A stretch of DNA of 8,731 nt, taken from positions 1 to 8,731 of the IMG/VR virus record IMGVR_UViG_2531839532_000005, one strand, 5' to 3'. Under the pieces are notes generated by a model, which saw only the letters and a list, made by a program, of their open reading frames with translations, was not told the origin of the DNA and did no database searches. This DNA is from a virus. Taxonomy: Duplodnaviria; Heunggongvirae; Uroviricota; Caudoviricetes. The position numbers and the translations under genes are program-made. This document shows positions 1 through 8,731 of the stretch, one piece after another; the first letter of the stretch is position 1, and every line of letters starts with the position of its first letter.

Positions 1-341
1 CCCGTCGACCGTCCGGCACAGTCCATCACAGTGATAAAGGTTCTCAGTATGTATCGCTGGCCTACACACAGCGGCTTAAGGAAGCCGGATTACTGGCATC
101 AACAGGAAGTACTGGTGACTCGTATGACAACGCGATGGCGGAGAGCATCAATGGCCTTTACAAAGCGGAGGTAATACACCGTAAGAGCTGGAAAAACCGG
201 ACAGAAGTGGAGCTGGCCACACTCACGTGGGTGGACTGGTATAACAATCGACGATTGCTGGAAAGGCTGGGCCATATCCCACCGGCAGAAGCAGAAAAAG
301 CTTATTATGCTTCCATCGGAAACGATGATCTGGCAGCCTGA
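1..341 (+). CDS. IS3-family transposase OrfB (DDE integrase-core domain), C-terminal fragment; 5' part lies upstream of the window
   Basis: Frame 3 is open from the window edge to TGA at 339-341. The translation ...HSDKGSQYVSLAYTQRLKEAGLLASTGSTGDSYDNAMAESINGLYKAEVIHRKSWKNRTEVELATLTWVDWYNNRRLLERLGHIPPAEAEKAYY carries the third acidic region of IS3-family DDE transposases (D-N-x-x-x-E-S) and the C-terminal YNxxRxHxxLGxxxPxE tail. Assigned from memory of the family signature, not from a search. Confidence 0.8.
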   Translation, partial: RRPSGTVHHSDKGSQYVSLAYTQRLKEAGLLASTGSTGDSYDNAMAESINGLYKAEVIHRKSWKNRTEVELATLTWVDWYNNRRLLERLGHIPPAEAEKAYYASIGNDDLAA

Positions 342-426
342 GTTCACAGATAAAACACTCTCCAGGAAACCCGGGGCGGTTCATTTTGTTTACTGATGCC
401 GTAGAAAGGTCTCTTAGCAAGAATAA
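1..426 (+). mobile_element. Right-hand portion of an IS3-family insertion sequence; exact right terminus not determined (somewhere between about 345 and 426)
   Basis: The OrfB 3' end is followed by a short non-coding tail. IS3-family elements normally end a few tens of bp after the orfB stop. The hairpin at 427-445 and the fall in GC beyond about 460 look like they belong to the neighbouring gene, not the IS. I could not recognise the terminal inverted repeat by eye. Confidence 0.45.
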
Positions 427-445
427 CCCCAGTTTAACACTGGGG
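427..445 (-). terminator. Putative intrinsic terminator for the low-GC gene 463-1128 (stem CCCCAGT, loop TTAAC, stem ACTGGGG)
   Basis: Perfect 7-bp inverted repeat 427-433/439-445 located 18 nt downstream of the minus-strand stop at 463-465. On the minus-strand transcript the hairpin is followed by UUAUUCUUGCU (U-rich). Confidence 0.35.
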
Positions 446-462
446 TTGCTTGCAACAGAGCG

Positions 463-1128
463 TCAATTTTTAAGAGCACTGATACAGAAAAATTGCATGA
501 CATTTTTCTTTATTGATTTAAATAAGCTAAACATTGTGACAGGTTCAAAGCTAGTTAACTCGATGAATTCCTCTCTCATTTGAGAAAGTAACAGCTGACG
601 TACTGATTCAATTTCTGCTGTTTGTTTTCTCAAATATCTTGAGAAAACAAGTAGTTCATCAGCTGTTTTGTTTTGGCCATTTATAAACGTAACAGGTTGC
701 CCTAGCTTAGATATGAGAAAAAATTGGTTAATTTTATCAAGTAATGGTGGAATTATTTTTTTCCATTCAGCCCATTCTTTTTCACGATGAAACTCCAGAC
801 TGTGCTGACATGTTCTTAGTTGCTGCATATCAATCGCCCAGACCTCACTCTCATCGAGGCAATCTTTCCATTTGCTAATTACATTAATGTCAAATTTTTT
901 GTTCGGTAGATAATTATCTTTGGCGTGCGCTTCCAGTATAGAGGCAAGAGTACCTGTATATTGCATCAAATTGGTAGATGCTCGGTTTACTAGCTCTGAT
1001 ATTCGATCTAGTTGAGTTGTTCTAATCTCAAGTGCTTTCTTTTTACGTTCATTTCGTAAAGCAAAATATGCAGCAAGGCAGACTGCAGCAACTGTGGCTG
1101 CTGGTGCGATAAAAATTTGCATATTCAT
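463..1128 (-). CDS. Hypothetical protein, 221 aa: N-terminal single transmembrane/signal-anchor segment followed by a charged, probably helical domain; low-GC orphan (moron-like) gene
   Basis: ORF on the minus strand. I prefer the ATG at 1128-1126 (MNMQIFIAPAATVAAVCLAAYFAL...) because AGGA sits about 8 nt upstream, whereas the ORF-track start at 1152 has no RBS. Hydrophobic stretch IFIAPAATVAAVCLAAYFAL is followed by RNERKKK (positive-inside). G+C is roughly 35-40% on sampled 60-nt stretches versus about 55-60% in the flanking tail genes. No recognisable catalytic motif. Confidence 0.65.
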   Translation of the reverse strand: MNMQIFIAPAATVAAVCLAAYFALRNERKKKALEIRTTQLDRISELVNRASTNLMQYTGTLASILEAHAKDNYLPNKKFDINVISKWKDCLDESEVWAIDMQQLRTCQHSLEFHREKEWAEWKKIIPPLLDKINQFFLISKLGQPVTFINGQNKTADELLVFSRYLRKQTAEIESVRQLLLSQMREEFIELTSFEPVTMFSLFKSIKKNVMQFFCISALKN

Positions 1129-1322
1129 AACATGGATCCTTTGACATGGCATTTATGGGGGCTATTTCAGCAGTAATCATTTGTGTGTAAATTTGTTTGC
1201 TACAAATTAACATATTCTAATGTAAGGCTCTTCTGATTTTGACACCGGGTAGGCTGTCAGATTGGTTATGATTCTTGCTGTAAGCGCGTTAGCAAATGTC
1301 AGGGCTAATGCATCTAAGTTGT

Positions 1323-2432
1323 TTACTCTGTTTCTGCTATCCATTCCGGGATTTTGGCTTCAAGCTCAAGCTGCGTGGTAAAGCCACTGTTATCAATGGT
1401 GTGCTCGGCTTTTGCAATGATCCAGTCCTGATTATCAATCTCGCTTTTAAATCCTGTTACCGTGCCATGCATTTCGGGGTAGAGCTCTGCTCGTCCACGT
1501 GCCAGCGTGATGGAAAATGATGCGGCTCCGCGTTGTAGCTGCTGCCACTTTGCCGCCGCTGCGCGTCTTGCTGCCTGCTCGTTCTGATAAGTTTTGCGTA
1601 ACACAAACACATTGCCTTCCGCGCCTTCCATATAATCACCTTCACGGCTGCTGCTTTTCTCTTTTTTCGGTTTTGGCGGTTTGCGGCGTTTCACGCTGAC
1701 TTTTTTCTTTTTCCCGTAATTAAGATCAAGCCAGTAAGCGCGTACCCCCGTATACGCCTCGCGGTCAGCAATGCGGAACTGATGGCGATCGCCGCTGCTG
1801 CGTGTGATGGCGAACGATGGCAACGGCTGGCCCTGTGCGTTCACGCCACCGCCGGGCATGATGAATAACAGATTGCCGCTTTTTACCGTGGTGATTGCGC
1901 CCAGCATTTCCGCCATGCGCGTAAGGAAGGACATATCGCTTTCTTCGGTCTGGTCGGCGTGGTCGATTTCGATATCCATCAGCATTTCGCTGATTTGCGG
2001 TTTCAGACCATACCGATGAGCGATGGCGGATACCACACGCTCAACGGTCACATCATGCCAGGACACCTCACGTTTAACGTTAAATTCATCCCGAAAATCT
2101 GCGCTTCTGGCTGAAACGGTCAGCCTGTCCGGCGGTCCTTCGTGAGCGATTTCATCAACAATGTAAGTGCCTTTTTCAGTCAGCGGTTCCCCTTTCCAGC
2201 CAATGAGAACCGTCAGACGCGCGCCCCGTGGCGGTAGCTGCAACTGACCATCCGCATCATCCAGCGTGATGGTGAGCTGGTCCGCTTCAAATCCCCGGTT
2301 GTCGGTCAGTGACAGGCTCATCAGGCGTTCTGCCACGCCGGACAGCGTTTTACCCTCCGCGAGAATATCAAAATCCGGCATTTTCACGGGGTCTGTGCCC
2401 TGACTGAGCAATTGCATGGTGGTGTCGGTCAT
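1323..2432 (-). CDS. D: Phage late control gene D protein / tail protein D (gpD family), about 369 aa
   Basis: Minus-strand ORF. Start chosen at ATG 2432-2430 (MTDTTMQLL...) preceded by GGGAGGGAG. The ORF-track N-terminal extension up to 2564 is Arg/Pro/Ser-rich and probably non-coding. Motifs typical of gpD: RLMSLSLTDNRGFEADQLTITLDDADGQLQLPPRGARLTVLIGWKG, SARSADFR, SWHD, FLTRMAE, the lysine-rich KKKKVSVKRRKPPKPKKEK linker, YMEGAEGNVF, AKWQQLQRGAASFSITLARG, NSGFTTQLELE. Confidence 0.85.
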   Translation of the reverse strand: MTDTTMQLLSQGTDPVKMPDFDILAEGKTLSGVAERLMSLSLTDNRGFEADQLTITLDDADGQLQLPPRGARLTVLIGWKGEPLTEKGTYIVDEIAHEGPPDRLTVSARSADFRDEFNVKREVSWHDVTVERVVSAIAHRYGLKPQISEMLMDIEIDHADQTEESDMSFLTRMAEMLGAITTVKSGNLLFIMPGGGVNAQGQPLPSFAITRSSGDRHQFRIADREAYTGVRAYWLDLNYGKKKKVSVKRRKPPKPKKEKSSSREGDYMEGAEGNVFVLRKTYQNEQAARRAAAAKWQQLQRGAASFSITLARGRAELYPEMHGTVTGFKSEIDNQDWIIAKAEHTIDNSGFTTQLELEAKIPEWIAETE

Positions 2433-2589
2433 CTGCTCCCTCCCTGTGTGGCATGGTCGCATGTGCGTGCGGAGGGGGTTACTGCTTTTTGTTGTCGCCG
2501 TGGCGGGAGAACGGCGCAGGGGTGAGATTACGCGCGTGGTGGGTGATGATTGTTGCCGAATCATTTAACGGATACAAGGGGCTGAAGCT
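2433..2589. promoter_or_regulatory. Divergent intergenic region between D (-) and FI (+); candidate late-type promoter for the FI operon with an imperfect TGT-N12-ACA-like dyad at 2493-2510
   Basis: 157 bp separate the two divergent start codons. TGTcgccgtggcgggAGA at 2493-2510 matches two of three positions of the second half of the P2/P4 late-promoter dyad. GATGAT at 2545-2550 is a weak -10 candidate. The FI RBS AAGGGG lies at 2576-2581. None of this is strong; the promoter call is tentative. Confidence 0.3.
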
Positions 2590-3774
2590 ATGAGTGAAAC
2601 TCGTTTTCATGGTGCCCGTGTTACGGAAAATACCGACCTGGTAACAGCGATTAACGATGTTGATTCCAGCGTTATCGGTATCGTGGCAACGGCGGATGAT
2701 GCGGACGCGAAGCTGTTCCCGCTGAACAAGCCCACACTGCTGACCCGCGTCAATGACGTGCTGGGAAAATGCGGAACAACGGGGACGCTTTATCGTGCGC
2801 TTAAGGCCATCGCAGACCAGGTGAGCACAAAGGTGATCGTCGTTCGCGTGGCTGAACACAAAGAAGAAGACGAAAAGACGCAGGATCAACTGGTTATCGG
2901 TGGTTCTGAGGATGACGGCAGCTATACGGGGATGTATGCGCTGCTTGTTGCAGAGCAGGATGAAAGCATCGGATACCGTCCGCGTATTCTGGCCGCGCCG
3001 GAGCTGGACACGGAGGCGGTGACAAAATCCCTGTGCGTGATTGCGGGTAAACTGCGCGCATTTGTGTATGCCTCATGTCACGGCTGTAACACGATGGCTG
3101 AAGCGATTACCTACCGCCAGAAATTCAACGAACGTGAAGTGATGCTCTTATGGCCGGACTTCATCGCCTACAACCCGAAAAGGGGCGAAAACGAAACGTT
3201 CCCCGCGCCTGCTTATGCGTGCGGCCTTCGTGCGTACATTGACCATGAGCAGGGCTGGCACAAATCGCTGTCCAACGTTCCGGTTAAAAATGTGCTGGGG
3301 ATGTCGAGGCATGTGTTCTGGTCGTTGCAGGCCGAAGACTGCGATGCCAACAGCCTCAACAACAAAGAAATCACGACCATTATTCGTCGCAACGGGTTCC
3401 GCTTCTGGGGCAACCGCACACCGGAAACGAACGCCTACATTTTTGAGGTGTATACCCGAACCGCACAGGTGCTGGCTGATTCAATTGCGGAAGCGCAGTT
3501 TGAAACCATCGACAGTCCACTGACGCCTGCGAACGTGAAGGATGTTATCAGTGCCATCAGGGCAAAACTGGATTCACTGGTGACTGCCGGGAAACTGATT
3601 GGCGCGGAGTGCTGGTATGACGTGGTGGATAACAGCACCACGGATTTACGTCAGGGGCGTGTGCGTATTCGCTACAAATATACGCCCGTTCCGCCACTGG
3701 AAGACATGGAGCTTTACCAGACGTTTACTGATGAATACTTTGAACCCGCATTTGCGGTGCTGGGAGGTGCCTGA
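2590..3774 (+). CDS. FI: Contractile tail sheath protein (P2 FI family), 394 aa
   Basis: ATG at 2590 with RBS AAGGGG. Length and motifs match P2-type sheath proteins (FPLNKP, KLRAF, WPDF, EQGWHK..LSNV, IRRNGFRFWGNRT, YTRTAQV, YTPVPPLE). Stop TGA 3772-3774 overlaps the next start by one base (TGATG). Confidence 0.9.
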   Translation: MSETRFHGARVTENTDLVTAINDVDSSVIGIVATADDADAKLFPLNKPTLLTRVNDVLGKCGTTGTLYRALKAIADQVSTKVIVVRVAEHKEEDEKTQDQLVIGGSEDDGSYTGMYALLVAEQDESIGYRPRILAAPELDTEAVTKSLCVIAGKLRAFVYASCHGCNTMAEAITYRQKFNEREVMLLWPDFIAYNPKRGENETFPAPAYACGLRAYIDHEQGWHKSLSNVPVKNVLGMSRHVFWSLQAEDCDANSLNNKEITTIIRRNGFRFWGNRTPETNAYIFEVYTRTAQVLADSIAEAQFETIDSPLTPANVKDVISAIRAKLDSLVTAGKLIGAECWYDVVDNSTTDLRQGRVRIRYKYTPVPPLEDMELYQTFTDEYFEPAFAVLGGA

Positions 3775-4286
3775 TGGCTGTGCCAAAACATCTTCGCTTT
3801 TTTACGCTGTTTGTGGATGGTGAAAACGAAGTGGGTAAGGTGACGTCCGTCACTTTGCCTAAGCTGACGCGCAAAACCGACAGCTACCGGGGTGGTGGCA
3901 TGATGGGGGCGGTAAGTATTGATCTCGGCCTGGACGACTCCGCGCTTGATGCGAGCTTTGTCATGGGGGGCGCAGTTCGTGCGCTGTTCCTTAAATATGG
4001 CGGCACGATTGACGGCACGCTGCTGCGTTTTGCGGGTGAATACTACACCGATGCAGAAAGCGATCTGTATGAAATCGAGATGCGCGGGCGTGTGACGGAA
4101 ATTGATATGGGGGAAGCCAAACAGGGCGAAGCCACATCACACACTTACGCTGTCAAAAACACCTACTACAAGCTGAGCGTTAACGATCGCCCGCTGTGGG
4201 AAATCGACCTGTTGAACCACATCTACCGGAAGGACGGCAAGGACATTGTGCCTGACCGTATCCGTTCCGCGCTTGGGCTTGGCTGA
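3774..4286 (+). CDS. FII: Tail tube protein (P2 FII family), 170 aa
   Basis: ATG 3774 overlapping the FI stop, with RBS GGGAGG at 3762-3767. The size (170 aa) and its position directly after the sheath gene fit P2 FII. Confidence 0.88.
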   Translation: MAVPKHLRFFTLFVDGENEVGKVTSVTLPKLTRKTDSYRGGGMMGAVSIDLGLDDSALDASFVMGGAVRALFLKYGGTIDGTLLRFAGEYYTDAESDLYEIEMRGRVTEIDMGEAKQGEATSHTYAVKNTYYKLSVNDRPLWEIDLLNHIYRKDGKDIVPDRIRSALGLG

Positions 4287-4303
4287 TAAGTAATATGCAG
4301 GCG

Positions 4304-4322
4304 GCGCAGTGCGTCGCCTCTG
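4304..4322 (+). other. Intercistronic stem-loop between tube and E (GGCGGCG-cagtg-CGUCGCC, one G-U pair), possible partial terminator or mRNA stabiliser
   Basis: 7-bp stem with a 5-nt loop seen directly in the sequence, 18 nt after the FII stop. There is no strong U-tract (UCUGACUG follows), so if functional it is more likely an attenuator or 3'-end stabiliser than a full terminator. Confidence 0.25.
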
Positions 4323-4341
4323 ACTGAAAAGGAGACAACTG

Positions 4342-4716
4342 ATGAAAGACATCGATACTGAAACCCGGAATAACACCGTGGCGGATGATGTGACGGCAGG
4401 TGAGGATATGGCTGTCGAACGTGGCGTAAAACTGACCCGACCAATTGAGCGTGGTGGCGAAAAAATCACGTATGTGGAGATCACCGGGGCTATTGAACAG
4501 GCTGGATCCCTGCGTGGTCTGTCGCTGTCTGATGTGCTGAATCTGAAAGCGGATACCATGTTCACGCTGTTGCCTCGCGTGACCTCGCCACGACTGGATG
4601 AAGTGATGATTAAAAAAATGTCGTCACGCGATTTTATTCAGTTGTGCGCTGTGGCTGTAAATTTTATGAGCGAGCCAGACTCTGGCGCGAAGAGCGTGCA
4701 GGAGACGGCAGCGTAA
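4342..4716 (+). CDS. E: Tail assembly chaperone E (gpE family), 124 aa
   Basis: ATG 4342 with RBS AAGGAG at 4328-4333. It sits between tube and tape-measure genes and is followed by an overlapping -1 frame ORF, which is the conserved chaperone arrangement. Confidence 0.85.
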   Translation: MKDIDTETRNNTVADDVTAGEDMAVERGVKLTRPIERGGEKITYVEITGAIEQAGSLRGLSLSDVLNLKADTMFTLLPRVTSPRLDEVMIKKMSSRDFIQLCAVAVNFMSEPDSGAKSVQETAA

Positions 4717-4880
4717 TCACCCTGGTGTGCTTTGAGCACATCGAAGATCTGGTGGCAGATATCGCCGCCATTTTTAACTGGTCGCCCGCCGAAATCTTCA
4801 TGATGACGCCCGGCGAAGTGGTTAGCTGGCGTGAGCGGGCGGCACTTCGCAGCGGGAATGCAGACAATGAAGACTCTTGA
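4342..4880 (+). CDS. E+E' fusion produced by programmed -1 ribosomal frameshift at the A7 run 4612-4618; E' portion roughly 4614-4880
   Basis: The -1 frame has a stop at 4611-4613 and is then open from 4614 to TGA 4878-4880. The E frame reads ATT AAA AAA ATG across seven consecutive A residues (4612-4618), a Lys-tRNA slippery site. After slipping the sequence continues ...IKK-NVVTRFYSVVRCG...NADNEDS. The E' end overlaps the start of T. Confidence 0.65.
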
Positions 4881-7674
4881 TATCCGGGTCGCTTTCAGCG
4901 CCGTTGACAGGCTGACCCGGCCTGCCGAAAACGCCCGCCGCCTGATGGGGCAGTTTGGTGACTCCATCCAGCGAACGCAGGGGGCGATCAAAAATCTCGA
5001 GCGTCAGGCGCGTTCATTTGAGCGCGCCCGTGACGCTGTCAGTAAAGCGGATGCTGGCATATTGAAAGCACGACGCCAGCTTAACGCTCTTAATCAGTTA
5101 CAACGCACGGGTACAGTGCTCAGCGAAAAACAACAAAAGCTGATGCAGCAGTTAAGCACCCGGCTTGAACGCCTGAATGAATCGCGCACACGGGAAATTC
5201 AGAAAATGCGGGAACTTGGCGGAGAGCTGAAACGCCACGGCATTTCCCTGACAGGCAGCGATAACACCATCCAGCAGGCCATCAGACGCACCGAACAGTA
5301 CAACAACCAGCTTGAACGTGAACGGCAGGCGCTTGCGCGTGTAACGCGGGCGCGTGAGCGGTATTCGCGCGCGCAGGAAACCGCGGGAAAACTGAAAACA
5401 GGTGGTGCGCTGGCAATTGGTGCGGCAGCGGCGGGCGGCTATGCTGCCGGGCGTTTTTTGCAGCCCGCGATCGGGTTCGGCAAAGAGATGTCCCGCGTTC
5501 AGGCGCTGACGCGAATCGACCAGAACAGCCCGCAGTTTAAGGCGCTGCGTGAGCAGGCATTAAAACTTGGCTCTGAAACGCAGTTCACCGCAGGCGATGC
5601 CGCCAGTGGGCAGGCATTTCTTGCAATGGCTGGCTTCACACCGCAGGCCATTCAGGCTGCGCTTCCCGGAGTGCTGAGCATGGCAACGGCTGGCGGTATG
5701 GATCTCGGCGAGACGGCAGATATTGGCTCAAATATCCTGACGCAGTTCGGCCTTTCTGCTGACCAGATGGACCGGGTCGGTGACACACTCACCGCAGCGT
5801 TTACCCGTACCAACACTGACCTTCGCGCACTGGGCGAAACCATGAAATATGCAGGTCCGGTGGCGGGTAAGCTGGGAATATCGCTGGAGCAGGCCGCAGC
5901 GATGGCTGGCGTGCTGGCGAATATGGGCATCAGAGGGAGTGATGCCGGGACGGCAATGCGTGCCAGCCTGGCTCGTCTGGCATCACCGCCAAAGGCGGCG
6001 GCAGAAGCTCTGAAAGAGCTGGGCGTGTCCGTCTCGGATGCCGGGGGCAAAATGCGCCCGATGGAGGATGTGCTGGCCGACCTTTATAAAGCCACCCGCA
6101 AATACGGGGAAGTTGACCGGGTATCGTTCTTTAAGGACATTGCCGGAGAAGAGGCTTTCACATCGTTTATGGCGCTCGTTGATGCAGCGGGTGACGGTTC
6201 CTTACCTAAACTGAGAAAAGAACTTGAAGGCGCACGCGGTGAGGCTGAACGCACAGCAAAGGTTATGGCCAACAACCTTGACGGCGATCTGAAATCACTC
6301 GGCAGTGCATGGGAAGGGTTGCGCATCCGCATTGCAGATCTGATTGACGGTCCGCTGCGTTCTGTCACGCAGTGGCTCACACGGGTGGTATCAAGGGTGA
6401 CGGCGCTGGCGCAGGCCCATCCGACACTGACGCGCCAGCTACTGATAGCAGGCGGTGCGTTGCTGGCAATGACTGCAACGGTTGGCTCGTTGTCGCTGGC
6501 TATTGGTGTGCTTGCTGGCCCGCTGGCAAAACTGCGTCTTGGTTTTTCTCTCCTGACCGGATCAATGAATGCTGTCAGGGTCCTGCCAGCACTATGGGGA
6601 ATGGTGACGGGTTCCGTTTCTTTACTGGGAGGCGCTATCGGGGCGCTGTTCAGTCCGGTCGGGTTGATTGCTGCAGCGTTTGTCGCTGCGGCGGTTCTCA
6701 TCTGGAAATACTGGGAACCCATCAAGGCGTTTTATGCCGGGGTGTTCAGTGGGATTATGGAGCGACTGGCCCCGTTGCGCGAAACCTTTGAACGGTTTGG
6801 CCCTGTTTTTGACGCAATCGGAAGCGGGATCAGCCAGGTGTTTAACTGGTTTAAATCGCTGCTGTCACCGATGGAGTCCAGCAAGGAAACGCTGGATAAA
6901 TGTACCAGTGCTGGCGAGATATTCGGTAACGTTCTTGGCGGTGCGTTACAGCTTGTTCTGACACCTGCAAAAATGCTACTGGATACGCTGGCGTGGATAC
7001 TTGAAAAACTCGGTGTGCTTCCGGATGAAGCGGAAAGGGCGCGCAAGAAAATCGAAGACGCACAGCGTGCGGCCATTCTTCAGGACAAGGTTGCCTTGCT
7101 TCAGGGGGACCTGGCGAAAATCAATCCGCCGAAGCCTGTGGAAAATGGCAATGGCACCGGAGGTGATAAACCCAAAGACAACAAACCGCTCACAGACAGC
7201 AATACCGGTACGCTACGCAGACTCAGCAAAATTGCTGATAACACAGGTAAGCTGGTTGATGAGACGAAAAAACGCATTGGCCCCGGCGATATTGTCTTTA
7301 AGAACCTGCCCCGCGCACTTGCTGTTCGTGGGGAGTGGCAGGAGCGGAAGATTGCGCAGGTCAGTAAGCCTGCTTCCGCAATCAACATCACACCCGTGGT
7401 CCCGACTCCTCTGCCTCCGGCGCTGGTCCCTGTTGTTGCGGCCAGCTCCCGCCCGGTGGCGGAGGCCATACGATCGCCAGTGGCATCAGTTCCTGCAACT
7501 TCCCGTAACCGGGAGCCTGTTGTCTCCGGATTTGGCGGTGAAATTCATGTTCATCTGCATAACGTTGTTACGCAGAATCCCCGCGAACTGGCGAAACTGG
7601 TCGGTGAAATGGTCAGGGCAGAATTGGAACGACGCGACCGTGCCGGACGTGGCAGTTTTTACGATAAAGATTGA
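4867..7674 (+). CDS. T: Tail tape measure protein (gpT family), about 935 aa
   Basis: Long ORF directly after E/E'. Start chosen at ATG 4867 (MKTLDIRV...) with GGGAA 9-10 nt upstream; ATG 4859 and the track start 4831 are alternatives. N-terminal coiled-coil-like region, a central Ala/Gly-rich domain, hydrophobic segments encoded around 6415-6715 (LLIAGGALLAMTATVGSLSLAIGVLAG..., GLIAAAFVAAAVLIW) and a Pro-rich C-terminus are all typical of tape measure proteins. Stop TGA 7672-7674. Confidence 0.85.
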   Translation: MKTLDIRVAFSAVDRLTRPAENARRLMGQFGDSIQRTQGAIKNLERQARSFERARDAVSKADAGILKARRQLNALNQLQRTGTVLSEKQQKLMQQLSTRLERLNESRTREIQKMRELGGELKRHGISLTGSDNTIQQAIRRTEQYNNQLERERQALARVTRARERYSRAQETAGKLKTGGALAIGAAAAGGYAAGRFLQPAIGFGKEMSRVQALTRIDQNSPQFKALREQALKLGSETQFTAGDAASGQAFLAMAGFTPQAIQAALPGVLSMATAGGMDLGETADIGSNILTQFGLSADQMDRVGDTLTAAFTRTNTDLRALGETMKYAGPVAGKLGISLEQAAAMAGVLANMGIRGSDAGTAMRASLARLASPPKAAAEALKELGVSVSDAGGKMRPMEDVLADLYKATRKYGEVDRVSFFKDIAGEEAFTSFMALVDAAGDGSLPKLRKELEGARGEAERTAKVMANNLDGDLKSLGSAWEGLRIRIADLIDGPLRSVTQWLTRVVSRVTALAQAHPTLTRQLLIAGGALLAMTATVGSLSLAIGVLAGPLAKLRLGFSLLTGSMNAVRVLPALWGMVTGSVSLLGGAIGALFSPVGLIAAAFVAAAVLIWKYWEPIKAFYAGVFSGIMERLAPLRETFERFGPVFDAIGSGISQVFNWFKSLLSPMESSKETLDKCTSAGEIFGNVLGGALQLVLTPAKMLLDTLAWILEKLGVLPDEAERARKKIEDAQRAAILQDKVALLQGDLAKINPPKPVENGNGTGGDKPKDNKPLTDSNTGTLRRLSKIADNTGKLVDETKKRIGPGDIVFKNLPRALAVRGEWQERKIAQVSKPASAINITPVVPTPLPPALVPVVAASSRPVAEAIRSPVASVPATSRNREPVVSGFGGEIHVHLHNVVTQNPRELAKLVGEMVRAELERRDRAGRGSFYDKD

Positions 7675-7686
7675 GGAGTCATGGCC

Positions 7687-8175
7687 ATGATGATGATCTA
7701 CGGCATGTTTGTTTTTGAGCTGCGCACATTGCCGCATCAGCAGTTACAGCAAAATAAAAGCTGGCGGCATGTGAAAAATGAACGCGTTAACCGTTCAGCA
7801 AGCTGGCAGTATATCGGGGCAGGCGATGATCGCATCGTGCTTTCTGGTGTGCTTTATCCTGAAATCACAGGTGGCGAAGTGTCGCTGTCGCTGCTGACCA
7901 CGCAGGCGTATACAGGACGCCCCTGGCCTCTGATTGATGGCGTCGGACAGATTTACGGCATGTATGTACTGACTGAAACGAATACGACCCGCTCCGAGTT
8001 TGATCGCTACGGTAAGGCGAAAAAGATAGAATTTTCACTGACTCTTGAACGCTGTGATGAGGATTTGCGGGAGCGCCTGCAATCCTCATCGTTCAGTGAT
8101 ATGCTGTCCGGCTTCAAAGATAAGGTCACATCATCCCTTAACAGCGCGGCCAGCTCCGTTAAAGGGCTGTTTTGA
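7687..8175 (+). CDS. U: Tail protein U (gpU family), about 162 aa
   Basis: ORF directly after T. RBS GAGGAG at 7673-7678 favours ATG 7687 (MMMIYGMFVFELRTLP...) over 7681 (only 2 nt spacing) or 7690. Size and position match P2 gpU. Stop TGA 8173-8175. Confidence 0.85.
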   Translation: MMMIYGMFVFELRTLPHQQLQQNKSWRHVKNERVNRSASWQYIGAGDDRIVLSGVLYPEITGGEVSLSLLTTQAYTGRPWPLIDGVGQIYGMYVLTETNTTRSEFDRYGKAKKIEFSLTLERCDEDLRERLQSSSFSDMLSGFKDKVTSSLNSAASSVKGLF

Positions 8176-8182
8176 TTAACGC

Positions 8183-8212
8183 AAAACCGCTAATGGTCAG
8201 ATTAGCGGTTTT
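8183..8212. terminator. Bidirectional intrinsic terminator between convergent U and invertase genes: perfect 12-bp stem AAAACCGCTAAT / ATTAGCGGTTTT with 6-nt loop GGTCAG
   Basis: The perfect inverted repeat is seen directly. On the + strand it is followed by CATTTTCC (U-rich). The right arm contains the invertase stop codon (TTA at 8202-8204 on +) and its last four codons. Confidence 0.6.
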
Positions 8213-8731
8213 CATTTTCCTGAGTCTGCCTGGTTGTTTCTTCAGCCTGTATATCGCCTACAGGGTGATAACGATAAATCGTCGATATGCCGATGTCGTA
8301 AATGATCGCCAGTTGTTTCCTGTCATGACCGTTTTTAATCAGCCTCGCTATTTGCTCGTGTTGTTCTTTTGTCAACTTCGGGCGACGTCCGCCAATGCGT
8401 CCTTGTGCGCGTGCTGCTGCCAGCCCGGCCAGTGTACGCTCTACAATTAATTCACGTTCCATTTCGGCTAAAGCTCCCATGACGTGAAAAAAGAAACGCC
8501 CCATGGGTGTTGATGTGTCAATGCTGTCCGTTAGACTACGGAAATTAACACCTTTTTCCCGCAATTCCTCAATAAGCGTGATCAGGTGTTTCATACTTCT
8601 GCCCAGTCTGTCCAGCTTCCAGACAACCAGCGTATCTCCTTCTGATAGCGTTCTGAGCAGTTTTTTCAATCCCGGTCTGGCTGATTTCGTTCCGCTGATT
8701 TTATCTTCAAAAATCAGTTCACATCCTGCGC
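8202..8731 (-). CDS. Serine recombinase, Hin/Gin/Pin/Cin-type DNA invertase; N-terminal 25-30 residues including the catalytic serine lie beyond the window end
   Basis: The minus-strand frame is open to the window edge. The translation ...CELIFEDKISGTKSARPGLKKLLRTLSEGDTLVVWKLDRLGRSMKHLITLIEELREKGVNFRSLTDSIDTSTPMGRFFFHVMGALAEMERELIVERTLAGLAAARAQGRIGGRRPKLTKEQHEQIARLIKNGHDRKQLAIIYDIGISTIYRYHP matches the resolvase catalytic domain and C-terminal HTH of Hin-family invertases almost motif for motif. The ORF-track start at 8669 is an internal Met. Confidence 0.9.
   Translation of the reverse strand, partial: AGCELIFEDKISGTKSARPGLKKLLRTLSEGDTLVVWKLDRLGRSMKHLITLIEELREKGVNFRSLTDSIDTSTPMGRFFFHVMGALAEMERELIVERTLAGLAAARAQGRIGGRRPKLTKEQHEQIARLIKNGHDRKQLAIIYDIGISTIYRYHPVGDIQAEETTRQTQENENR

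Follow-up and report, generated by a model that had tools for sequence, protein, structure and literature searches.

A Gin/Pin-type DNA invertase gene meeting gpU tail to tail in a P88-like prophage of Escherichia coli

The feature at the right-hand end of the window (the whole stretch of viral DNA analysed, 8,731 nucleotides) is, with a probability of roughly 0.93, part (the 3′ 88%) of a gene whose product, a DNA invertase of the Fis/enhancer-dependent Gin/Pin type, belongs to the tail-fibre switch of a P88-like prophage and ends in an unconserved tail. The enzyme would act on two inverted 26-bp sites of the pix type, one upstream of its own start codon and the other within the tail-fibre gene H, and inversion of the 1.88-kb segment between them would swap the C-terminal, receptor-binding part of H and bring in the matching assembly gene, resulting in two host-range variants, as with Mu G, P1 C and e14 P. 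On the other side, the FI-FII-E-T-U block lies opposite to that of P2 and Fels-2, so that the 3′ end of the invertase gene meets the 3′ end of gpU; a hairpin between the two would act as the terminator for both genes, and the tail would be a run-on encoded by the gpU-flank DNA, with the frame ending inside the terminator stem.

The window matches the genome of E. coli strain 300709 (NZ_CP025903.1) over its full length, with 2 of 8731 nt differing (positions 3183 and 8108), and that of strain JB2 over 379-8731, likewise with 2 nt differing (383 and 3183). Everything described here beyond 8731, including the orientation of the invertible segment, was extrapolated from these two genomes, and invertase residues 1-24 were taken from the near-identical genome 300709. 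The element is a P2-family, P88-like prophage (Peduoviridae, Xuanwuvirus) adjoining ihfA, in which the P2-type late genes FI, FII, E, E′, T, U, D and ogr are annotated and GPD and GpU are matched in Pfam. Its T-U-invertase region has 88-90% DNA identity to P88 and other Xuanwuvirus and Gemsvirus phages. Positions outside the window are given in the coordinates of the individual loci, i.e., L003 for 300709, L001 for JB2, L002 for P88, L005 for Mu gin and L013 for PhiR44_2.

In 300709 the prophage is defective, and the switch may lack phenotypic consequence in that strain. The tail-completion, lysis, X and L genes, about 3 kb in all, are absent between V and M (L003 25723-27067 compared with L001 21124-25651). 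The prophage also carries an ISEc20 near hok (L003 8793-9989) and an IS3-family element, the end of which forms window positions 1-378, between ogr and an ORF of 229 aa. This ORF (window 463-1152, minus strand), located between gpD and ogr, has conserved counterparts in JB2 and E2348/69. Neither Pfam nor PADLOC yielded a match for it, and it is possibly a cargo gene.

The features around the invertase gene are as follows, with the basis of each assignment in brackets.

7681-8175, plus strand: gpU tail gene, the last gene of the FI-FII-E-E′-T-U block, convergent with the invertase gene (PF06995, E 5.5e-39)
8183-8212, both strands: shared hairpin with a 12-bp stem (terminator scan and folding of either strand)
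8202-8731, minus strand: 3′ 88% of the DNA invertase gene, comprising 2 nt of codon 24, codons 25-199 and the TAA stop (translation)
8202-8261, minus strand: tail of 19 non-conserved codons (VGDIQAEETTRQTQENENR) and the stop (tail survey)
8262-8390, minus strand: helix-turn-helix DNA-binding domain, residues 138-180 (HTH_7; alignment to Hin 1hcr)
8391-8731, minus strand: catalytic (resolvase) domain and helix E, residues 25-137 (Pfam; invariant alignment columns)
8717-8731, minus strand: putative distal Fis-binding core GCGCAGGATGTGAAC, gene positions +71 to +85 (homology to the hin 5′ region)
L003 20857-20882, window-equivalent 8857-8882: crossover site 1, TTCTCCCAAACC AA CGTTTAAGAAAA on the invertase strand
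L003 22733-22758: crossover site 2, TTCTCCCAAACC AA GGTAATCAAGAA, inside the tail-fibre gene H after codon 382

The invertase and its putative enhancer

Translation of the window gave a minus-strand frame (8202-8729) that is open over 175 residues and ends in a stop (AGCELIFEDK...STIYRYHPVGDIQAEETTRQTQENENR*). The frame exits at the window end, and residues 1-24, including the catalytic Ser9, fall outside. In 300709 the full protein of 199 aa is encoded by an intact ORF (L003 20202-20801), the start codon of which is at window-equivalent 8801, 70 nt beyond the window end. The 199-aa protein is matched by the Pfam families Resolvase (PF00239, residues 3-135, E 6e-52) and HTH_7 (PF02796, residues 138-180, E 1.4e-12), its best solved relatives are the Mu Gin structures 4m6f and 3uj3 (E 1e-91), and it aligns with the Hin DNA-binding domain 1hcr at E 9e-13. 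Its identity is 82% to e14 Pin, 78% to Fels-2 Fin, 75% to P1 Cin, 73% to Mu Gin and 68% to Hin.

The residues on which catalysis and activation depend in the family were followed in alignments. S9 is invariant among the relatives, and M114 corresponds to the wild-type, Fis-dependent state; the roles of the catalytic S9 and of wild-type M114 have been described (PMC3575834). McLean et al. (PMC3798978) listed Hin R43, K47, K/R48, K/R51, Q151, R154 and L155 as specific to Fis/enhancer-dependent invertases, and all of their equivalents are present here: the basic helix-B residues R42, K46, K47 and R50 in the catalytic domain part, and Q150, R153 and L154 in the Fis-contact patch, where the first two are invariant and L154 is at least 90% conserved. 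The gene is a serine DNA invertase of the Gin/Pin/Hin family, and the Hin-family call of the sequence-only reading was thus borne out by the Pfam domains, the matches to Gin structures and the 68-82% identity to family members. The gene shows no sign of decay, and the enzyme presumably depends on Fis.

The position of the recombinational enhancer was mapped by aligning the 5′ region of the gene to that of a Salmonella hin locus. In the hin enhancer, an ATTTA and a TAATG segment lie between the two Fis sites (McLean et al., PMC3798978); in the hin gene these segments were found at +50 to +64, flanked by 15-bp cores with G/T...C ends at +26 to +40 and +74 to +88, the centres of which are 48 bp apart. 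The homologous positions in the present gene are +23 to +37 for the proximal core, outside the window, and +71 to +85 for the distal one. The centre of the proximal core is about 98 bp from that of the nearest crossover site (see below), and about 100 bp has been reported for Hin. By homology, the enhancer would accordingly extend across the window end within the 5′ portion of the gene, which agrees with its expected location in the sequence-only reading. A strict scan for Fis motifs (G..C ends with an A/T-rich centre) found no pairs 48 bp apart and did not single out the homology-derived cores.

The invertible segment and the tail-fibre gene H

No crossover site was found within the 8,731 nt, in line with the earlier remark that the invertible target is not visible there. 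It had been suggested that the target may lie just beyond 8731 and that the stretch be extended in search of inverted 26-bp sites, and such sites were found in the near-identical genomes. A half-site search of the 32.7-kb 300709 locus yielded exactly two copies of TTCTCCCAAACCAA, in inverted orientation, and the two 26-bp pix-type sites to which they belong (TTCTCCCAAACCAACGTTTAAGAAAA and TTCTCCCAAACCAAGGTAATCAAGAA) have identical inner half-sites and the cores TT and AA. From the window end it is 126 nt to the first base of site 1, which lies upstream of the invertase gene at a distance of 56 bp from the start codon and is identical at 25 of 26 positions to the crossover site beside e14 pinE. 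The gene had been said to border the tail-core operon where its relatives border an invertible segment; this contrast was false, as the segment is on the 5′ side of the invertase and the operon on its 3′ side.

Comparison of JB2 with 300709 revealed a clean inversion of the 1.88 kb at L003 20869-22749, with 99.95% identity and collinear flanks. The H gene is intact in either orientation, encoding 544 or 496 aa, of which the first 382 residues (...DYLGLGE) are common and the remainder divergent. Two tail-fibre assembly genes lie inside the segment in opposite orientations, and each variable end of H has its own. Both types of invertase-proximal junction are present in many complete E. coli genomes, in counts that include related elements such as e14. 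Assemblies of strains with such a prophage can differ by this 1.88-kb inversion without real divergence.

The alternative orientation of H is mislabelled as a pseudogene by automatic annotation. In JB2, H (L001 17789-19279) was called a pseudogene by PGAP, with a separate "gp53-like" ORF, and is actually a single intact frame of 496 codons; the call is an annotation artefact of the flipped state.

Flipping has been followed directly in a close relative. The prophage at the same chromosomal position in EPEC E2348/69 is 98% identical to the window, and its invertase is 97% identical, with the same 19-residue tail bearing one substitution. Goldberg et al. (2014, PMC4272514, Table S1) detected and quantified two overlapping, phase-variable inversions in clonal E2348/69 cultures at 1891695-1893703 and 1892127-1893703 and confirmed them by PCR, and the ends of these inversions match the three half-sites found at this locus (NC_011601.1 1891695, 1892134 and 1893696). 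E2348/69 has other Hin-family invertases, in a Mu-like and a second P2-like prophage, which could possibly act in trans, and the flipping there is therefore no strict proof that the orthologue is the active enzyme.

The sequence-only reading had offered as an alternative a decaying remnant of a rearrangement, an invertase gene whose invertible target has been lost. The defects of the 300709 prophage (the deletion between V and M and the IS3 and ISEc20 insertions) and the lack of a crossover site within the window would fit such a relic; however, the 199-aa ORF is intact and retains all catalytic and activation residues, including those for Fis contact, two perfect inner half-sites stand just outside the window in 300709, the segment is inverted between the near-identical prophages of 300709 and JB2, and the orthologous E2348/69 locus flips in culture (PMC4272514). 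On these grounds the relic was ruled out, provided that the source of the window does not depart from 300709 and JB2 just past 8731, and there is next to no chance that it is the right description.

An active switch of the Gin/Pin type, the preferred reading, has several known counterparts. One is the Pin/P segment of the E. coli K-12 element e14, which flips in culture (PMC4272514): besides the 82% protein identity, the matching site is at the same distance from the start codon, the tail-fibre assembly gene name tfaE is common to both, and both prophages are defective. They differ in that e14 is lambdoid and the present host element P2-like, that Pin has a tail of 4 residues as opposed to 19, and that mcrA, rather than gpU, lies 3′ of pinE. 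The Gin/G segment of Mu provides the closest solved structures, with S9 and M114 conserved, and has the same split of the tail-fibre gene into a constant and a variable part, with two cassettes of variable part and assembly gene in opposite orientation. Its G segment, however, is about 3 kb rather than 1.88 kb, its sites are of the gix type (TTCCTGTAAACCGAGGTTTTGGATAA) rather than the pix type, and the Gin tail has 13 residues. Hin of Salmonella shares the domain layout, the Fis-contact residues and the enhancer-homologous 5′ DNA about 100 bp from the site, but its H segment flips a flagellin promoter instead of part of a tail-fibre gene, and its 9-residue tail is basic.

Counterparts of the whole locus are found in P88 and other Xuanwuvirus and Gemsvirus phages and in the E2348/69 shufflon, which share the synteny, the hairpin and invertases that are 83-97% identical. 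The E2348/69 locus has three sites, and hence four states, as opposed to two sites here. P88 differs in the Gin-like N-terminal half of its invertase, its gix-type sites and a tail of 15 residues. The P88 invertase (L002 26977-27564) is a mosaic, in which residues 1-100 are identical to Mu Gin at 99 of 100 positions and residues 101-180 are of the window type; judged by the sequence comparison, this mosaic implies recombination inside the invertase gene between cassettes.

The junction with gpU and the reversed FI-U block

The tail-to-tail placement of the invertase gene against gpU, noted in the sequence-only reading, was confirmed by the Pfam match and the coordinates of gpU. The stop codons of gpU (8175) and the invertase (8202) are separated by 26 nt, and the hairpin at 8183-8212 (AAAACCGCTAAT-GGTCAG-ATTAGCGGTTTT, 12 pairs) bridges the end of the invertase gene: its right arm spans the stop (8202-8204), Arg199, Asn198 and 2 nt of Glu197, and the last invertase codons are indeed embedded in the shared hairpin, as had been stated. 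The folding free energy is -17.6 kcal/mol on the plus strand and -16.9 on the minus strand, with z-scores of -2.6 and -3.6, and the stem is conserved in Xuanwuvirus and Gemsvirus phages. The hairpin is followed by UUUUCAUUUU on the plus strand and by just UUUU and then GCGUU on the minus strand. It is probably a bidirectional intrinsic terminator for gpU and the invertase, going by its sequence and folding. The whole window was also compared with Rfam at gathering thresholds, with no match.

The invertase had been contrasted with members of its family that sit in the usual place, and this contrast did not hold. In Fels-2, a P2-like Salmonella phage (Felsduovirus), the invertase Fin is likewise located between the invertible tail-fibre segment and FI-FII-E-T-U-D, and the order on one strand is H, invertible segment, invertase, FI, FII, E, T, U and D. 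Fin thus has the same two neighbours, and only the orientation of the FI-U block differs: in Fels-2 the invertase is followed by FI on the same strand, whereas in the window gpU runs towards the invertase gene, and D and FI point away from each other. The same reversal of the block relative to P2 and Fels-2 is seen in P88 and its relatives, and it is fixed across the P88-like lineage. The U/invertase arrangement was also found in P88, P88_4B11, phiSM, 503458, 520873 and 500465-2, and the corresponding junction in 620 of 5426 complete E. coli genomes. P88 and phiSM are active, plaque-forming phages (PMC5285337; PMC6456863), and the arrangement is therefore compatible with function. Literature searches turned up no description of the reversed block, and the P88 paper is silent on both the invertase and the reversal of the gene order.

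The gene gpD is split from the FI-U operon and is transcribed away from FI across a 157-bp spacer (window 2433-2589; L001 27610-27763). The canonical P2 late-promoter box TGT-N12-ACA, which is present upstream of Fels-2 FI, had no match in the window. A box TGTTGT-N12-AGAAC was seen in the middle of the D|FI spacer, and a similar box lies midway in the divergent O|P spacer; one activator site at the centre of the spacer may act on the late promoters of both directions.

The proximity of the invertase to a reversed block invites the explanation that the enzyme acts, or once acted, on the 5.6-kb FI-U block itself, with the junction and the hairpin as the scar of an inversion at secondary sites. 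The block is inverted relative to Fels-2 and P2, one of its breakpoints adjoins the invertase gene, and the hairpin arms contain AAAACC and GGTTTT. These half-motifs, however, are 18 bp apart rather than 2, and a search of the window for inverted repeats and crossover-like sites, in particular at the ends of the block, returned nothing beyond chance. Of 1370 E. coli genomes with a match to the D|FI junction, 1355 have it, i.e., it is fixed and the block is not flipping today, and PhiR44_2 and Chuche have the block in the same orientation as the window without any invertase. An action of the enzyme on the FI-U block is thus very improbable.

The C-terminal tail

The sequence-only reading had drawn attention to a C-terminal extension longer than that of Hin and proposed its comparison with other invertases. 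The greater length is real, as 19 residues follow the ...YRYHP motif, compared with 9 in Hin (from the 52-residue chain 1hcr), 13 in Gin, 6 in Cin, 5 in Fin and 4 in Pin, and the tail is the longest among the 120 closest homologue clusters. As a special feature it did not stand, however, since the tails that follow ...Y(R/K)x(F/H)P in these 120 clusters range from 1 to 19 residues and are unrelated, with no conserved sequence. Even in the clade closest to it, where the cores are 94-97% identical, the tails read VGDIQAEETTRQTQENENR, AGESSGTIEKSQKTK, VEKRQTQSEL and VGTVITQPEM.

The origin of the tail is suggested by PhiR44_2, which lacks the invertase and the invertible segment and keeps gpU, the hairpin and about 60 nt of the tail-coding DNA (L013 5577-5663 against window 8176-8262). 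The homology to the window stops at about 8262, i.e., at the boundary of codons 180 and 181, which by this alignment marks a module junction. As the tail DNA is retained beside gpU without an invertase, it goes together with the gpU flank, and the frame of the invertase would simply continue into that flank until it reaches the stop in the hairpin. In P88, DNA alignment showed that the 15-residue tail differs from that of the window through small indels between the helix-turn-helix and the hairpin. In the AlphaFold model, which is only moderate overall (mean pLDDT 68), residues 183-199 have a pLDDT below 50, compared with 73-83 for the helix-turn-helix. The Hin tail is unstructured, and its deletion leaves Fis-activated inversion unaffected (PMC3798978). 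The 19 residues are thus an unconserved and probably disordered run-on, and would be dispensable.

It could be argued instead that the acidic tail is a functional novelty that modulates DNA binding, Fis dependence or site choice, or couples the termination of translation to the hairpin. Besides its length, the tail is preserved, but for one or two substitutions, in several clusters numbering hundreds of members (P0003, P0007) and in E2348/69, and the invertase stop codon sits in the hairpin stem. Against this stand the different tails of 10 or 15 residues in proteins with 94-97% identical cores (P0006, P0008, P0015), the indels of P88, the low pLDDT, the deletable Hin tail and the persistence of the tail DNA beside gpU in PhiR44_2. 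A function of this kind is highly unlikely. Slim, too, is the chance of the stronger proposition that the invertase caused the lineage-defining reversal of the FI-U block at secondary sites, leaving the hairpin and the tail-coding stretch as the scar, or of its milder version, in which the acidic tail tunes the enzyme. The "extension" should not be taken for a new domain.

The invertase is typical of its well-studied family, and the type of prophage that carries it is common and already annotated. The switch itself is already known, as it is annotated in phage records and its flipping has been published for a 98% identical prophage. Beyond correct annotation the finding therefore matters little: what it describes is a host-range switch of the standard kind, in a type of prophage that is very common in E. 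coli.
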